This document shows positions 7,595 through 57,590 of a stretch of DNA of 64,000 nucleotides, in pieces. The notes beneath the pieces are model-generated. The model was not told the DNA's origin and did no database searches. It saw nothing but the letters and a program-made list of their open reading frames with translations. The stretch spans positions 50,716,001 to 50,780,000 of the forward strand of contig NC_043006.1 in assembly GCF_006345805.1 (NCBI RefSeq), read 5' to 3'. Source of the DNA: Octopus sinensis. Lineage: Eukaryota. Position numbers and translations under genes: made by a program. The stretch's first letter is position 1. The number at the start of each line of letters is the position of its first letter.

Positions 7595-7979
7595 CTCTTT
7601 ACTCTTTTACTTGTTTCAGTCATTTGACTGTGGCCATGCTGGAGCACCGCCTTTTTAGTCGAGCAAGTCGACTCCAGGACTTATTCTTTGTAAGCCTAGT
7701 ACTTATTCTATCGGTCTTTTTTGCCGAACCGCTAAGTTACAGGGACGTAAACACACCAGCATCGGTTGCCAAGCGATGTTGGGGGACAAACACAGACACA
7801 CAAACATATACACACACACATATATATATACATATATACGACTGGCTTCTTTCAGTTTCCGTCTACCAAATCCACTCACAAGGCTTTGGTCGGCTCGGGG
7901 CTATAGTAGAAGACACTTGCCCAAGGTGCCACGCAGTGGAACTGAACCCGGAATTATGTGGTTTGTAAGCAAGCTACTT
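7595..7979 (-). mobile_element. Family-B SINE (ggctgtgtggtaag... head), body and tail; the head continues at 10176-10203
   Basis: Near-identical to the uninterrupted copy at 57203-57590; split by the 7980-10175 insertion. Confidence 0.9.
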
Positions 7980-10175
7980 TATTTCAAAACATTTGCCATA
8001 AAGCCAGTACACAGATTAAGTTATCTTTGCGGGCTGGACGAGGACATTAATGAGGTGAATGATAATGAAAGAAAGATAAGGATGGGAGAAGACAGAAAGC
8101 GCCCGCCAACTTTTGCTTCTCTAAAACATTGTTCTTTTTAAAAAAGATAAACACAAAACGAGGTATTAAACCTCTTACAATTTTTCCAATTTTTGGACTT
8201 AGCAGTCCATTATTAATATAAAACGAGGTATTAATCCTCTTACAATTTTTCAATTTTTGGACTTAAGTCCATTACTAATAATACATATCGTCCTCGAAAT
8301 AGCTTGTGCCCGCGCCCTCCACCATCAGCCACGCCTCCCTCAGAACGTAGTCAAGTTCCGAGTTCGCGTCGCCCGGGACCAAGTTATAATCTTCATTGAG
8401 CTCCTTTAGCCCTAGCGTCACGTCGAACGCCACGGCCTCCACAGCTACCTGCGGAGGCCATTCGGGGTCCTGTGTGAAGGCTAAAGGTGCTCCCTTGTAG
8501 TGTTCTTCCATCACTTTTTCAATTTCTCCTCCTCTATAGAAGAGGACAAATACATTCAGTTCTTTCGTTGGCGGCACAGTTTCCGCCAACGGTATTCCTT
8601 CTCTTGTCGGTGGCACAACCCCAACCGACGTAGTTCCGCGACATTCCGGTGCTACACTGACAGCCGGTAATGTCCCGTTTTTCTTCCTCTTTTTCTTTTT
8701 TTTTCCCTTTTCAACTGAGGGAGGGTGCGTCTCCTCCGTGGCTGGAAGATTCGCCTTCCTCTCCTCATCCCTATTATCCTTTGGTGAGCACCCATTGTTG
8801 CTCACCTTCCTCTTTCGGCCTCTGTTTGAGGAGTCCTCTGCTTTCTCGGCCGTTATCGTTCCCTCTTCTAGAGGGGTTTTACTTAACTGTTCCGGGATCC
8901 TATTTTGTTCCCGAGGACAGTTCTTCTTTATGTGGCCGGACTCCAAGCACCGATGACACTTAGGGGGGCGACCCTCAAGCATCACCGGGTACCTGCACCC
9001 GGCCATTTTCAAAAAATCTGGAAGAACCAGATTGGCTGATTGGGTCCACAGGGTCAAAATTGCTTTTGACCCAACCCAAGCAGCCGCAGGAAGAACTTTT
9101 ACATTGAGGAGCTTAGTTTCGCTGTCACCCAGACCCCGGCGGATAGTCTCCTCTATCCACTCGGGTTCTATGTCGGGTGCAGTCCGCAGATCCAAGCTTT
9201 CATCAATTTCTTTTTTTGTACGTGGGCAGGAATAAGATTTCCTTACCCTCCAAGGGTTTGCTAGCAAATTTGCAAGCCTCTTCAGGGGTGTCAAATAGCA
9301 ACCACACCGTTGCATATTTGACACCCCTGGAATGAATTTAATTGTTGGCAAATACTCTTCCAACTCCTTTTCAATCGCCGTCTTTTCGAATAGGGCGATG
9401 GTGTCAAGTGCCTTGGAGTAGGTTCTCAACACCACCGTCCTATCTTCACGGTCTTTTAACCACTTTTTAGGTGGTATGATTTCCCACTCCAAAAGTTTGT
9501 TATTTTTCATTGCCATGTTTTTTTTAAAATATATTCAAATTAAACTCAAAAGCAGGAAGAAAAAGTTCAAAAGTCCAAATAAAATTTGATAGATTTTTGA
9601 AAAAACAAAAAGGAGAAAGCACAACAGAAGGGAAGAAATTAACGGAAAGTCGCAATAAAGAAAAAAAACAAAAGGGGGGGGGGGGTAAATGAAGTTCAAA
9701 AGAAAGTTAATAAACAGAAAAAACACAGCAAAAATATTCTGGCCTTGCGGTACTCCCGGCCTGGGTTGAACCTGGAACGCCGCAACTGCAACACAACCTC
9801 CACAAAAATGGGTCCGAAAGGTAATCCAATAGTGGCTTAATTTTATAATTTTCTTGCGAAGTAGTAAAACACAAGCAAACAAATTAATTTTTGCGGAGGG
9901 GCTACGCCTCCTCAAAAAGTACAATTCTCACTAAAGAGTGAGACCTTAGACACGACAACAGGCAAAGAAATATATCTGAAGTAAAGTGAAGTTTATTACC
10001 CGCAAAAAAATATTAATGCTAGATAACGTTAACTGCTAAATAACATTAAGCAAGCAATAAACTTCACTATGCTTCTAAAAATACAGAACGTCTTACCTGT
10101 CGCCGAGTCAAAAGTTCAACATTTCACGTTCAAACACGTGACATTTGCAGGAGCAAAAAACAACACGTCTGTCTG
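7980..10175 (-). mobile_element. ORF1-only non-LTR retroelement (HAL1-like half-LINE), 2.2 kb, with a 15-bp TSD
   Basis: TSD GTAAGCAAGCTACTT at 7965-7979 and 10176-10190. The 5' end reads CAGACAGACGTG and the 3' end AATAAA. There is one gag-like ORF and no RT or endonuclease. Confidence 0.85.
8275..9516 (-). CDS. LINE ORF1-like nucleic-acid-binding protein (RRM-like region, CCHC zinc knuckle, basic tail)
   Basis: CHRCLESGHIKKNC is a CX2CX4HX4C knuckle, preceded by YPVMLEGRPP as in L1/Tx1-type ORF1, with KGKKKKKRKK downstream. Residues ~63-112 are probably out of frame. Confidence 0.75.
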   Translation of the reverse strand: MAMKNNKLLEWEIIPPKKWLKDREDRTVVLRTYSKALDTIALFEKTAIEKELEEYLPTIKFIPGVSNMQRCGCYLTPLKRLANLLANPWRVRKSYSCPRTKKEIDESLDLRTAPDIEPEWIEETIRRGLGDSETKLLNVKVLPAAAWVGSKAILTLWTQSANLVLPDFLKMAGCRYPVMLEGRPPKCHRCLESGHIKKNCPREQNRIPEQLSKTPLEEGTITAEKAEDSSNRGRKRKVSNNGCSPKDNRDEERKANLPATEETHPPSVEKGKKKKKRKKNGTLPAVSVAPECRGTTSVGVVPPTREGIPLAETVPPTKELNVFVLFYRGGEIEKVMEEHYKGAPLAFTQDPEWPPQVAVEAVAFDVTLGLKELNEDYNLVPGDANSELDYVLREAWLMVEGAGTSYFEDDMYY

Positions 10176-11174
10176 GTAAGCAAGCTACTTACCACACAGC
10201 CACATTCATTTTGTCAGTTATGCTCAAACGTAAAACACTGGAATTTCCTGGGCACAGGAAGCCTAAGTAGAAGCCACAGACTGTCAGAATCTAGCAGTGT
10301 TTTCCTTATCTAAAGATGTAACCTTGAATTTACAATTTTAATAGCTGACTGATCTATTTAAATTTGCAATTTAAATTGCTGACTGAAGTTTTAGAATATT
10401 TTAAATCATCACCAGGGATCATTTCTTTATATCATCGAAGTAATTAGCTAGCTCTTTAAAAGTCTTTAAGAAATCTTCCCAGTTCTCTGTTAAAAATTGG
10501 CACCCCATTTATAACACCAAACGGGAAGTGCATAAACAGTAACCTTTTCATATTTAGCCCAGGAAACTTGCGAAATGTTGTTGAGTAAACAAGAGTGTTT
10601 GATCTGTTGAACGTAGGTCAACGGTAATTATTATTAATGGGTGAGAAAGGAAATGCATCTAGCTGTATTTATCTAATAATAGTAAATGTGCTGTAAACCA
10701 TTAAGCACTTTTTTGCACTGCAATGACTTTGAAGTATAATTATTCTCTCAGCCGACAATTTATTAATTTCATCTTTAATCAATTGGCGGTCCTCAAAGGA
10801 GAGATAAGCGAAACTATGTGGAGCATCGGATGAGTAATTTCTCTGCAAAAATCGCCAAAATTGACTCTGTGAAAACCGGAAATTTTAAAGTTTTGTCAAA
10901 AATAGTTTAAATTTCGAGTCGCCACATATAACAAACTCAGTTATAGGCGGCAGTTTAATTTCAATCTGAAGTAATTGAATTTGTGATCATACACGGATTC
11001 TCAAGATTCAAGAAACACTTACTCCACAGGCTGTAAAAACTTCATTTGCTAACACTCTTCTCTCACAGTTATGCATTTTCATCTACGTACGCTGTTTTCT
11101 AACCAGTGCATCGAAGAAATCGATGTGTGCACAAAAGATTAATTACCTAAAATAATATAGAAATCCAAGATTAT

Positions 11175-12783: not shown

Positions 12784-13393
12784 CCGTAAATCCCCGAGTA
12801 TAGTCCGGCCTTGATTATAATACACAGGGGATTTTTAGGGGCTGTACCTCTGAAAAACCTAAACCTTGTAAATAATACGCACCCCTTCTCTAACTTGTGT
12901 CAAAGAGATATATATAACGTCTTTGGTTTGTAAAACTGTATACGGCAACGTCCTTTATTATTATTGTATATATATAGCATAATGCAAACCTGTAGCTATT
13001 TTGTGCATTTTATTTGCAGAAAATAAAGAAATAACAGTAATAACGTTTAATAAATGTAGCTTACTGCAAGTTATGGATGATTCTTTTATGACTTCATTGC
13101 TTTCAGGTTTAGCTTAAGGTATTTTCGCGCCCGACATCACAAAATGAATCTGAATAAACATTGCCGGACAGCAAATAGAAACTCGGACATTGCTTAGAAA
13201 ATAATTTTTACTTTTAACCTTGTATATAGTACGCACTAGGGATTTTGACCTTTAAATTTTGGGGGGGAAATGCGGAGACTCGGACATTGCTTAGAATATA
13301 ATTTTTATTTTTAACCTCGTATATAGTACGCACTCGGGATTTTGACCTTTAAATTTTAGGAAAAAAATGCGGATTATACTCGAGGATTTACGG
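12784..13393. mobile_element. Non-autonomous Tc1/mariner-pogo-type MITE with TA TSD
   Basis: TIRs CCGTAAATCCCCGAGTATAGTCC and GGATTATACTCGAGGATTTACGG, each flanked by TA. Contains an internal ~97-bp tandem duplication (13181-13374). Another end of the family lies at 53622-53744. Confidence 0.85.
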
Positions 13394-17872: not shown

Positions 17873-17873
17873 A

Positions 17874-17874
<1 letters not shown>

Positions 17875-17932
<58 letters not shown>

Positions 17933-17948
17933 TATGTGTATATGTATG

Positions 17949-17997
<49 letters not shown>

Positions 17998-18088
17998 TTA
18001 TGTGTATATGTATATATATATGTTTATGTATAGTATAATATATATTTTTATGTGTATATGTATATATATTTTTATGTGTATATGTATG

Positions 18089-18126
<38 letters not shown>

Positions 18127-18266
18127 GTGTGTGTGTTTATGTGTATATGTATATATATATATGTTTATGTATATGTATATATATATATGTTTATGTGTAT
18201 ATGTATATATATTTTTATGTGTATATGTATATATATATGTTTATGTGTATATGTATATATATATGC

Positions 18267-18301
<35 letters not shown>

Positions 18302-18335
18302 TATATATGTATATATATATATGTATATATATATG

Positions 18336-18396
<61 letters not shown>

Positions 18397-18397
18397 G

Positions 18398-18441
<44 letters not shown>

Positions 18442-18449
18442 AATATATG

Positions 18450-18486
<37 letters not shown>

Positions 18487-18577
18487 TATATATATATATG
18501 TATATATATATGTATATATATATATATATATGTATATATATGTATATATATATGTATATATATATTATATATATATG

Positions 18578-18619
<42 letters not shown>

Positions 18620-18624
18620 TTATG

Positions 18625-18655
<31 letters not shown>

Positions 18656-18828
18656 GTATATATATATGTATATATATATATGTATATATATATGTATATA
18701 TATATATGTATATATATATGTATATATATATATATGTATATATATTGTATATAATATATATATATATGTATATATATATGTATATATATGTATATATATT
18801 ATATATATATATATATGTAATATATATG

Positions 18829-18861
<33 letters not shown>

Positions 18862-19013
18862 GTATATATATATATATATATATATACTTTGATACTTTGA
18901 TACTTTGATAGGTTTCGGCCATTATTGGCGCAGGGCATGTCTAACTTAATAGCACCACCTGGTGAAGTATTTCAAGTCAGAATTTGGGCACTATGCCCAC
19001 TCAAGTAGAGAGT

Positions 19014-19073
<60 letters not shown>

Positions 19074-19164
19074 ATATATATATATATAATATATATATAT
19101 ATTATATATATATATACATATATATATAGATAAATATACAATATATATATACATATATAATGTA

Positions 19165-19196
<32 letters not shown>

Positions 19197-19200
19197 GTAT

Positions 19201-19251
<51 letters not shown>

Positions 19252-19332
19252 GTTATATATAGATAATATGTATATATATATATATATATATGATATATAT
19301 ATATATTATATATATAATATATATATATGTAT

Positions 19333-19411
<79 letters not shown>

Positions 19412-19452
19412 GTATATATAATATATATATATATATGTATATATATAATATA

Positions 19453-19489
<37 letters not shown>

Positions 19490-19623
19490 ATATATATATA
19501 ATATATATATATATATATGTATATTATATATGTATATTATATATATATATGATATATGTATATATATAATATATATGTATATATATATGGTATTTTATAT
19601 TATATATATATGTATAATATATG

Positions 19624-19660
<37 letters not shown>

Positions 19661-19751
19661 TATATATATATATGTATATATATATGTATATATATATATA
19701 TATATGTATATATATGTATATATATATGTATATATATATTATATATATATG

Positions 19752-19793
<42 letters not shown>

Positions 19794-19798
19794 TTATG

Positions 19799-19829
<31 letters not shown>

Positions 19830-20002
19830 GTATATATATATGTATATATATATATGTATATATATATGTATATATATATATGTATATATATATGTATATA
19901 TATATATATGTATATATATTGTATATAATATATATATATATGTATATATATATGTATATATATGTATATATATTATATATATATATATATGTAATATATA
20001 TG

Positions 20003-20035
<33 letters not shown>

Positions 20036-20196
20036 GTATATATATATATATATATATATACTTTGATACTTTGATACTTTGATAGGTTTCGGCCATTATT
20101 GGCGCAGGCCATGTCTAACTTAATAGCACCACCTGGTGAAGTATTTCAAGTCAGAATTTGGGCACTATGGCCCACTCAAGTAGAGAGTTATATATA

Positions 20197-20230
<34 letters not shown>

Positions 20231-20231
20231 C

Positions 20232-20310
<79 letters not shown>

Positions 20311-20401
20311 CTTACATATACATATATATATATACATATATATATGTATATATCTATATATATGTATATATTATATAGATGTATATATAATATATATATG
20401 T

Positions 20402-20435
<34 letters not shown>

Positions 20436-20528
20436 ATATATATATAGATATTTATATATATATCTATGTATATATATATATATATAATATGTATTATATA
20501 TATATATGTATATATATATACTATATAG

Positions 20529-20623
<95 letters not shown>

Positions 20624-20641
20624 TATGTATATATAATATAG

Positions 20642-20677
<36 letters not shown>

Positions 20678-20854
20678 ATATATATGTATATATATATATA
20701 TGTTATATATATATATATACTATATATATTAATATATATATTAATATATGTATTATATATATATATATAGATATATGTATATATATATATGTATATTATA
20801 TATATATATATATGTATATAAGGGTATATATATATGTATATATTATATGTATAT

Positions 20855-20912
<58 letters not shown>

Positions 20913-20964
20913 TAATATATATATAATATATATATATATTATATATCTATATATGTATATATAT
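17875..20964. repeat. ~3-kb imperfect (TA)n/(TATG)n tract with two CR1 tail fragments (18886-19015, 20060-20190)
   Basis: Directly visible; 18436-19015 is repeated at 19610-20190. Confidence 0.95.
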
Positions 20965-21980
20965 ACTTTGATACTTTGATACTTTGATCTTTGATAGGTT
21001 TCGGCCATTATTGGCCCAGGCCATGTCTAACTTAATAGCACCACCTGGTGAAGTCTTTCAAGTCAGAATTTGGCACTATGGCCACTCAAGTAGAGAGTTA
21101 TTGTTTACAGAGACATATCCGGGTGTAGGGGGTTTATCCGGGATTTCTTGAAGGAATCTGTCCAAAGACTTCTTGAACCCTATAGGGTCAGTTTCTGTAT
21201 TAATGTGTTTTGTTAATGTTAAAGAGAGCGGGGCCAATTGAGGTGAAATAATTGTGCCGTATTGTTGTTATGAGATGAGAGTGCGATTTTTGTTTTGGGC
21301 GGATGGCACGGGGCCCAAGCCTTGGATGTACCTTAAAGGTGATGCCAACATCATTTGGGCAATGCTGATGGAATATTTTCCACATCATGCAGATGATGTA
21401 GCGCTCACGACGACGTTGGAGAGAATAGAGTTTTAGCTTTTCTAGTCGACCCCAATAGTCGAGGCCCGTCATGCCATCTATCTTTTTTGTGATTGCCCTT
21501 TGAGGTGCTTCAACTTTTATGATACCTTGTATTGTGTGGAGAGACCACAGTGGACAACAGTATTCAAGGTGGGGTCGGGCAAAAGTGGAGAAGAGAAGGA
21601 TAATGGTGTGGATATCTCTCGACTGGAAAGTTCTGAGAATCCAGGAACACATTCTGCGGGCCATGTCAACTTTGGTGTTTATATGAGTGGCCCAGCTTAC
21701 GTTGTTGTCCACAATTACTCCCAAGTCTCTGTTGTTGTTGGACGCCGCGAGAGTTTCACCTGAAGGAAGGGAGTATGGGAGTTTCAGGGCATCCTCTTTT
21801 CCAAAGTGGATTAGCTCAAATTTATCCTCGTTCAGCAGCATATTGTTTTTTTCTGCCCATTGGATAACAGCCAGTAGATCTGACTGAAGGCATGTCCGGT
21901 CACTCGCCTCATTTATGACCTTCTGTAGCTTGGAGTCATCTGCAAAGATTTTTATGTTGCTGTGCTTGATGATGTCATTA
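20965..21980 (-). mobile_element. 5'-truncated CR1-group LINE (RT C-terminal half, 3' UTR, octamer tail)
   Basis: KIFADDSKL (21935-21946), LQSDL..W...N.M.LN..K, RDLGVIVD, RPHLEYCCPLWS, LYSLQRRRER; (ATCAAAGT)n tail. Confidence 0.9.
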
Positions 21981-40117: not shown

Positions 40118-40660
40118 GAAGACGGTGAGCTGGCAGAAACGTTAGCACGCCAGGCGAAATGAGTAGCCGTTACGTTCTGAGTTCAAATTCCGACGAGGTC
40201 GACTTTGCTTTTCATCTTTTCGGGGGTCGATTAAATAAGTACCAGTTACGCACTGGGGTCGATATAATCGGCTTAATCCATTTGTCTGTCCTTGTTTATC
40301 CCCTCCGTATTTATCCCCTTGTGGGTACTAAAAAAATAGGTATTTCGTCTGTCGTTACGTTCTGAGTTCAAATTCCGCCGAGGTCGACTTTGCTCTTCAT
40401 CCTTTCGGGGTCGATAAATTAAGTACCAATTACGCACTGGGGTCGATGTAATCGACTTAATCCGTTTGTCTGTCCTTGTTTGACCTCTCTGTGTTTAGCC
40501 TCTTGTGGGTAGTAAAGAAATAGGTATTTCGTCTGTCTTTACGTTCTGGGTTCAAATTCCGCCGAGTTCGACTTTGCCTTTCATCCTTTCGGAGTCGATA
40601 AATTAAGTATCAGTTGCATACTGGGTCGATCTAATCGAATGCCCCCCCCCCCTCCAAAAA
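40118..40660 (+). mobile_element. Trimeric family-A SINE (one head plus ~184-bp internal units)
   Basis: Junctions aaatag|gtatttcgtc at ~40339 and ~40523. Confidence 0.85.
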
Positions 40661-57202: not shown

Positions 57203-57590
57203 TTTTACTTGTTTCAGTCATTTGACTGTGGCCATGCTGGAGCACCGCTTTTAGTCGAGCAAATCGACCCTAGGACTTATTCTTCTTTGTAAGCCTAGTA
57301 CTTATTCTATCGGTCTCTTTTGCCGAACCGCTAAGTTACGGTGACGTAAACACACCAGCATCGGTTGTCAAGCGATGTTGGGGGGACAAACACAGACTCA
57401 CAAAAATATACATACACATATATACATACATATATACGACGGGCTTCTTTCAGTTTCCGTCTACAAAATCCACTCACAAGGCTTTGGTCGACCAAAGACA
57501 CTTGCCCAAGGTGCCACGCAGTGGGACTGAACCCGGAACCATGTGGTTGGTAAACAAGCTATTTACCACACAGCCACTCACTCCTACGCC
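57203..57590 (-). mobile_element. Full-length family-B SINE
   Basis: ggcgtaggagt..ggctgtgtggtaa...ggttcagtcc head through gaaacaagtaaaa tail. Confidence 0.9.

Follow-up and report, generated by a model that had tools for sequence, protein, structure and literature searches.

How does a retroposon that encodes a single ORF1 protein, and neither an endonuclease nor a reverse transcriptase (RT), come to move as a unit, and what determines where it lands? The question is raised by an element in the window (the whole 64,000-nucleotide stretch of the Octopus sinensis genome analysed here). A first-pass annotation had described, within a 15-bp target-site duplication, a 5′ UTR of ~660 bp, one ORF with a CCHC knuckle and a 3′ UTR of ~295 bp that includes a ~64-bp tandem duplication. 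This layout was recovered on the minus strand (659 bp, 413 codons and 295 bp, the tandem duplication being 65 bp), and no endonuclease or RT was found between the two repeats. The features of the element, and of the SINE in which it sits, are these:

7980 to 10175, minus strand: ORF1-only retroposon of lineage A, 2196 bp, bounded by an exact 15-bp repeat
10176 to 10190, minus strand: 5′ copy of the 15-bp repeat, ~10 nt of duplicated target plus ~5 nt of likely element leader
7965 to 7979, minus strand: 3′ copy of the repeat, which is the SINE target site; the insertion point lies between 7980 and 7979
9517 to 10175, minus strand: 5′ UTR, 659 bp
10164 to 10170, minus strand: AGACGTG, an instance of the RGACGYG motif and a candidate internal promoter element
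8275 to 9516, minus strand: ORF1, 413 aa, with two predicted RRMs and a CCHC knuckle
8914 to 8961, minus strand: CCHC zinc knuckle
9178 to 9330, minus strand: stretch out of frame in the window copy, with three single-base deletions relative to siblings
8155 to 8280, no strand assigned: 65-bp tandem duplication in the 3′ UTR, common to many siblings
7994 to 8006, minus strand: 4-bp tail hairpin of the TGCC-n5-GGCA type, also present in the LINE described below; the window stem has a mismatch at 8004
7978 to 7983, minus strand: AATAAA spanning the 3′ junction
10191 to 10203, minus strand: remnant of the host SINE head, box-A-like; its first ~9 nt are absent in the window copy
7595 to 7964, minus strand: remainder of the host SINE (box-B-like motif, body, microsatellite and tail), by comparison with empty SINEs (L103–L107)

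An Rfam search of the element returned nothing above threshold. The copy itself bears signs of a complicated history. The first 312 nt of its 5′ UTR match another ORF1-only subfamily (~81% identical) and the remainder matches the main young subfamily (~97%), and it is likely a recombinant of the two. Residues ~63–113 of its ORF1 are out of frame in comparison with all nine of nine aligned siblings, and at 9178, 9210 and 9330 alike a single additional base is present in contigs of four public runs. Such a pattern indicates that the ORF is open solely by virtue of three compensating 1-nt deletions, and that this copy is decayed or mis-assembled.

The first-pass annotation supposed that the element moved as an ORF1-only unit, and other copies bear this out. 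A DNA search of the 2.72-Gb genome gave matches longer than 1 kb at 92–100% identity for 40 of 40 scored candidates, and a 23-nt pattern from the tail occurs exactly 203 times: lineage A comprises at least 200 copies. The suggested check – whether other copies continue into ORF2 – was made in two ways. Of 30 loci from a protein search with ORF1, a set that overlaps those of the DNA and tail searches, 29 stop 230–410 nt beyond the ORF at one junction, the remaining locus having suffered a deletion across the junction. A sample of filled sites (78 of the first 100 listed, the other 22 being already typed: 17 by a lineage-A tail and five as LINE) was classified by script as 40 ORF1-only elements, ten LINEs with ORF1 and ORF2, eight truncated LINEs, 19 short or unknown inserts and one ambiguous case (L220); at none of the 78 does a lineage-A ORF1 run on into ORF2. 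L220, a candidate for just such a fusion, proved to be a LINE with an internal deletion, the ORF1-only match being a separate one 4 kb upstream, and L202, called ‘full’ by the script, is likewise an internally deleted LINE. These two keep the LINE ORF1 and have lost internal parts of ORF2 at different breakpoints; they may be intermediates toward new half-LINEs. Lineage A thus combines an ORF1 without ORF2, a multicopy state and fixed ends with the marks of target-primed reverse transcription (TPRT), namely duplications and 5′ truncations. Sequencing runs under four other species labels contain 35–52% of the element's sampled words, a lead to a family shared among related species.

What the first-pass annotation missed is the site. 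The window element splits a SINE: above 10190 there is a short remnant of its head, below 7965 its body and tail, and the base of the split is used family-wide. Throughout the genome, 191 of the 203 exact tails are followed by AAGTAG; of the 12 others five were fetched, four being one-mismatch targets and one retaining only AAGTA. In 29 of 30 loci from the DNA search, the element stops at the identical base and the sequence beyond it is this SINE, always in one orientation. An exact 33-nt pattern representing the empty site has 52,602 occurrences in the genome; for the exact filled junction the count is 400. Insertion of lineage A is site-specific: the head of a tRNA-like SINE is entered at a single base. 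Three further heads of the same type, all without insert, lie on the minus strand of the window at 57575, 36335 and 59977, the last of them partial. Some SINEs hold more than one insertion: at L031–L036, L063 and L228, two or three elements from different subfamilies are stacked head to tail within one SINE.

A critical issue is the identity of the entity that supplies the missing enzymes. At L036 a two-ORF LINE lies directly upstream of an ORF1-only copy in one SINE, with a rebuilt site between them. Both of its ORFs are intact, and its ORF2 (1130 aa) has APE, RT and zf-RVT domains by Pfam; the nearest solved relative is L1 ORF2p (E 3e-65, versus 6e-20 for R2). Of 30 ORF2 loci, 29 end at the SINE base used by lineage A, the 30th being a sister at 65% identity, and of 91 exact LINE tails 82 run into AAGTAG, seven of the other nine being target variants. 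The LINE uses the same SINE base, stands in tandem with ORF1-only copies and shares with them a tail of ~35 nt, from which we conclude that it is likely the helper of the ORF1-only family. Its features – two ORFs, APE and RT with a C-terminal zinc motif, affinity to the L1 group and target specificity – fit a Tx1-like LINE, an assignment by features rather than by a tree with named references; among 120 listed ORF2 homologues none bears a Tx1 name. The annotation had proposed a search for an autonomous LINE with a matching ORF1 or 3′ end. The 3′ end of the one found matches; its ORF1 is only 27% identical. A parent LINE bearing an ORF1 of the lineage-A type was not found in genome searches that scored 40–101 candidates each, so a rare one may exist.

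The site has a third user. One insert left as ‘unknown’ by the script (L195, G000:C3:14775448-14777398), together with L234–L252, defines a second ORF1-only lineage (B) of ~1.45 kb that has the same tail and occupies the same SINE base. Eleven of the 20 loci fetched have both ends parsed at the SINE site, many of the 20 lie in an AAGAAG variant of the SINE, and none has an ORF2 match. The lineage-B ORF1 is nearer to LINE ORF1s than to that of lineage A; the best tree places it among them, and an AU test does not reject A and B as one clade (p 0.376).

The ends of the element suggest how it is copied. The last ~35 nt are the only DNA that lineage A and the LINE have in common, and they contain the four-pair stem. 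In 63 distinct tails 92.9% of cells are paired, 15 being altered on both sides (T-A to C-G and C-G to T-A), and these compensatory changes trace to few subfamilies; none of 500 shuffles reaches three of five measures, and 41 and 50 reach the other two. The hairpin is likely a handle for ORF2p. The AATAAA with which the element had been said to end is present and straddles the junction: AATA comes from the element and AA from the repeat, and no poly(A) or A-tract follows. All 100 parsed 3′ junctions pass from an AAATA-type end straight into the target, and since the script selected for that junction it is of note that 191 of the 203 unselected tails agree. The hexamer would thus be completed by the first two bases of the target, and these could prime synthesis. 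Mammalian HAL1 is a poly(A)-tailed derivative of L1. The comparison with HAL1 made in the first-pass annotation consequently holds for the ORF1-only state and not for the poly(A) feature: the candidate helper is Tx1-like and tail-recognising, not an L1 of the poly(A) type.

For 81 full-size insertions the final 5 nt of the 5′ repeat were compared with the local target: 35 differ, 43 are the same and three are unparsed. The differences are mostly toward the subfamily's own form, and among 13 copies that carry the leader of the window copy, 12 have the same 5′ form regardless of target. This independence of the target suggests that the RNA likely begins inside the repeat, and that the window's perfect 15 bp consists of a ~10-bp duplication together with leader sequence that matches; the supposed 15-bp target-site duplication stands as an exact repeat, its distal ~5 nt being probably element leader. 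The AGACGTG noted at the outset, and likened to internal LINE promoters, is present, and the guess gains support from the family: of the 81 full-size insertions, 66 have RGACGYG within their first 100 nt and none (0/81) has it in the next 100 nt, making it a candidate internal promoter element. Most young copies (L004–L030) have other 5′ ends with a GCGCATG-type motif, which we take to be NRF1-like, pointing to promoter swapping.

We consider it very probable that lineage A is mobilised by TPRT in trans, in which ORF2p of the LINE, recruited by the tail, makes a sequence-specific nick and the site is rebuilt. An internal Pol II promoter would start the RNA within the duplicated target, ~5–7 nt before the element body, and the element's own ORF1p (two RRMs and a CCHC knuckle) would package it. 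ORF2p of the LINE would then bind the tail hairpin in trans and nick the bottom strand of the SINE at CTACTT/ACCA, reverse transcription being primed on the terminal AA of the RNA. Finally, the 5′ end would be joined via the target-like leader, and such joining would rebuild the site on both sides so that later copies could stack head to tail.

A refinement that does not exclude TPRT in trans is that a short tail motif, complementary to the top strand of the target, guides or stabilises insertion by RNA–DNA pairing. Of 61 sampled tails, 39 have within their last 110 nt a match of at least 7 nt to the reverse complement of the target (2.7 expected from shuffles), at about −80 in the LINE and at −42 to −48 in lineage A. 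However, the motif is found in 0 of 16 tails of lineage B, which shares the base, so it is not required; it is interrupted by bulges in the window's own subfamily, and it could pair with read-through RNA instead. We regard such guidance as unlikely.

It is also conceivable, if improbable, that mobilisation is in trans and yet what selects the site is not the sequence specificity of an endonuclease but tethering to Pol III factors at the SINE promoter. TRE elements of Dictyostelium are tethered near tRNA genes in this fashion, and the octopus site falls between motifs that resemble box A and box B (a likeness by eye; ARAGORN found no tRNA gene in ten host-SINE loci and Rfam no tRNA match in two). 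But tethering sits poorly with single-base precision in one orientation, and with repeat insertion at rebuilt sites inside stacks, kilobases from an intact promoter. The sister LINEs are telling in this regard. Eleven such loci (ORF2 63–65% identical) lack the SINE junction: five end in (TC)n (L173, L177, L180–L182), one in (TATC)n (L190), two in one other shared repeat (L175–L176) and three in unrelated flanks. The microsatellite targets point to a tunable endonuclease. Several sister LINEs carry open ORF2s.

A third possibility is that SINE and insert are mobile as one composite, the fixed site being a single old insertion copied many times, with which the common orientation of SINE head and body in every copy accords. 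It is very improbable, and is refuted by the truncations and the flanks. Nineteen insertions under 1.85 kb, truncated to many lengths, adjoin the SINE head with duplications of 0–17 bp, and in 21 young copies the inserts are 97.6% alike while their SINE flanks, which include several SINE variants, are 91.0% alike, with no correlation between the two (210 pairs, not independent). Short copies abutting the head, and flanks more diverged than the inserts, show the insertions to be independent. Moreover the LINE, lineage A and lineage B are all found at the site, and in tandem stacks.

With independent TPRT in trans as the preferred reading, it remains to ask what kind of protein the element has kept. 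Pfam recognises only a weak zf-CCHC in the window ORF1 (E 0.006, below the curated cut-off). Two RRMs are predicted at ~aa 14–183, followed by the CCHC knuckle at aa 186–201; the C-terminal half is of low confidence. An AlphaFold model, built for the in-frame sibling L046 rather than the window ORF, is confident for residues ~10–200 (block pLDDT 69–90) and low beyond. It resembles tandem-RRM proteins (best Foldseek E 5e-5), the VIA Z of 7–9 being modest and spread across many RRMs, and we predict that the lineage-A ORF1 has a tandem-RRM-type fold and binds RNA. This ORF1 is homologous to that of the helper LINE (27% identity, E 8e-22); sister LINEs that use other targets have ORF1s nearer to the latter, at 30–42%. 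The dN/dS comparison that the first-pass annotation recommended gave a median of 0.21 among lineage-A ORF1s (range 0.10–0.82; 150 of 171 pairs, dS above 0.3) for rows chosen for open frames, indicating on sequence grounds that the protein is under purifying selection. In a tree the 19 lineage-A ORF1s lie on one side of a 100/100 branch and eight LINE ORF1s on the other. Low identity, the tree and constraint together indicate that the family is old and its protein kept, rather than a recent half of its helper. The idea that one deletion, or one premature polyadenylation, in a LINE gave rise to the window copy merits next to no credence: internally deleted LINEs do occur at the site, but 203 exact tails, many subfamilies of 1.9–2.45 kb and an ORF1 diverged under selection across that branch refute it.

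Each ingredient of this system has precedents. LINE derivatives with ORF1 alone have been described in the L1, Jockey and CR1 clades, and the passage concerned names none from Tx1 (PMC5786205, PMC5753468). HAL1 of mammals, HeT-A of Drosophila and Ag-Sponge of Anopheles are likewise non-autonomous, have kept ORF1 and the 3′ end and need ORF2 in trans; the octopus family differs in inserting at one base of a mobile element, in lacking poly(A) and in having an ORF1 far from that of its helper. Transposon-targeted LINEs, with passengers that share the target and tandem insertions around the duplication, are represented by Tx1L in Tx1D of Xenopus and by Tx1-Mar and SINEU-3 in Mariner-N4_AMi of crocodilians (PMC4494074). 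The targets named there comprise DNA transposons, LTR elements, snRNA genes and microsatellites, with no SINE among them, and whereas the crocodilian passenger SINEU-3 is a non-coding SINE, that of the octopus is a protein-coding half-LINE (PMC4494074). Keno, Dewa, Mutsu, Kibi and Koshi insert sequence-specifically into multicopy RNA genes or repeats (PMC4494074, PMC3706591); the octopus sister LINEs in (TC)n resemble Kibi, but the target of the octopus family is the head of a dispersed SINE that offers upwards of 52,000 exact empty sites. Finally, the stringent LINE/SINE tail pairs of UnaL2 and ZfL2 offer a likeness in the short common 3′ stem-loop as a probable ORF2p handle (PMC4176376), although they belong to another clade and the octopus stem, of four pairs, is putative.

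ORF1-only parasitism and transposon targeting are thus each known; their combination, a half-LINE family and its helper at one SINE base, was not found in the literature searched. Nor did that literature (Repbase and Dfam lay outside its scope) yield, for cephalopods, any account of a LINE that targets a SINE or of a Tx1 family with ORF1 alone. A 2026 paper on repeats of O. vulgaris reports 13 recently active L1-Tx1 families (PMC13282606); neither ‘target’ nor ‘non-autonomous’ occurs in its searched text, as distinct from its supplements, which may hold these families.

The family is of interest for several reasons. Half-LINEs outnumber their helper at one SINE base; the ~35-nt tail is a minimal putative handle for ORF2p, and the LINE a candidate site-specific endonuclease. 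The family also offers natural evidence that ORF1p remains under selection where ORF2p appears to be borrowed. Annotation is also affected, of cephalopod repeats and genes alike: a protein search with the in-frame ORF1 gave only two matches, both labelled Octopus sinensis, and the closest database protein is annotated as an uncharacterized host protein.

More tentatively – and we put the chances at somewhat less than even – the octopus SINE may host a guild of hyperparasites at one base, made up of a Tx1-like LINE and two separately born ORF1-only lineages, in which an RNA chaperone has been kept over long divergence, promoters have been swapped by recombination, and RNA ends that mimic the target (5′ leader and tail motif) aid joining and the rebuilding of the site. 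Were this so, the LINE would amount to a naturally occurring integrase with single-base precision and a safe landing pad of 50,000 copies, and the system would allow a direct test of why ORF1p is needed in cis when ORF2p can be borrowed.

Repeats of other kinds are present elsewhere in the window: a tandem array with a 184-bp unit (2.6 copies) at 40168–40638 that resembles another SINE, one with a 97-bp unit (1.8 copies) at 13181–13357, and, at 17873–20965, a tract of AT microsatellite that extends for 3.1 kb and shows strong GC skew.
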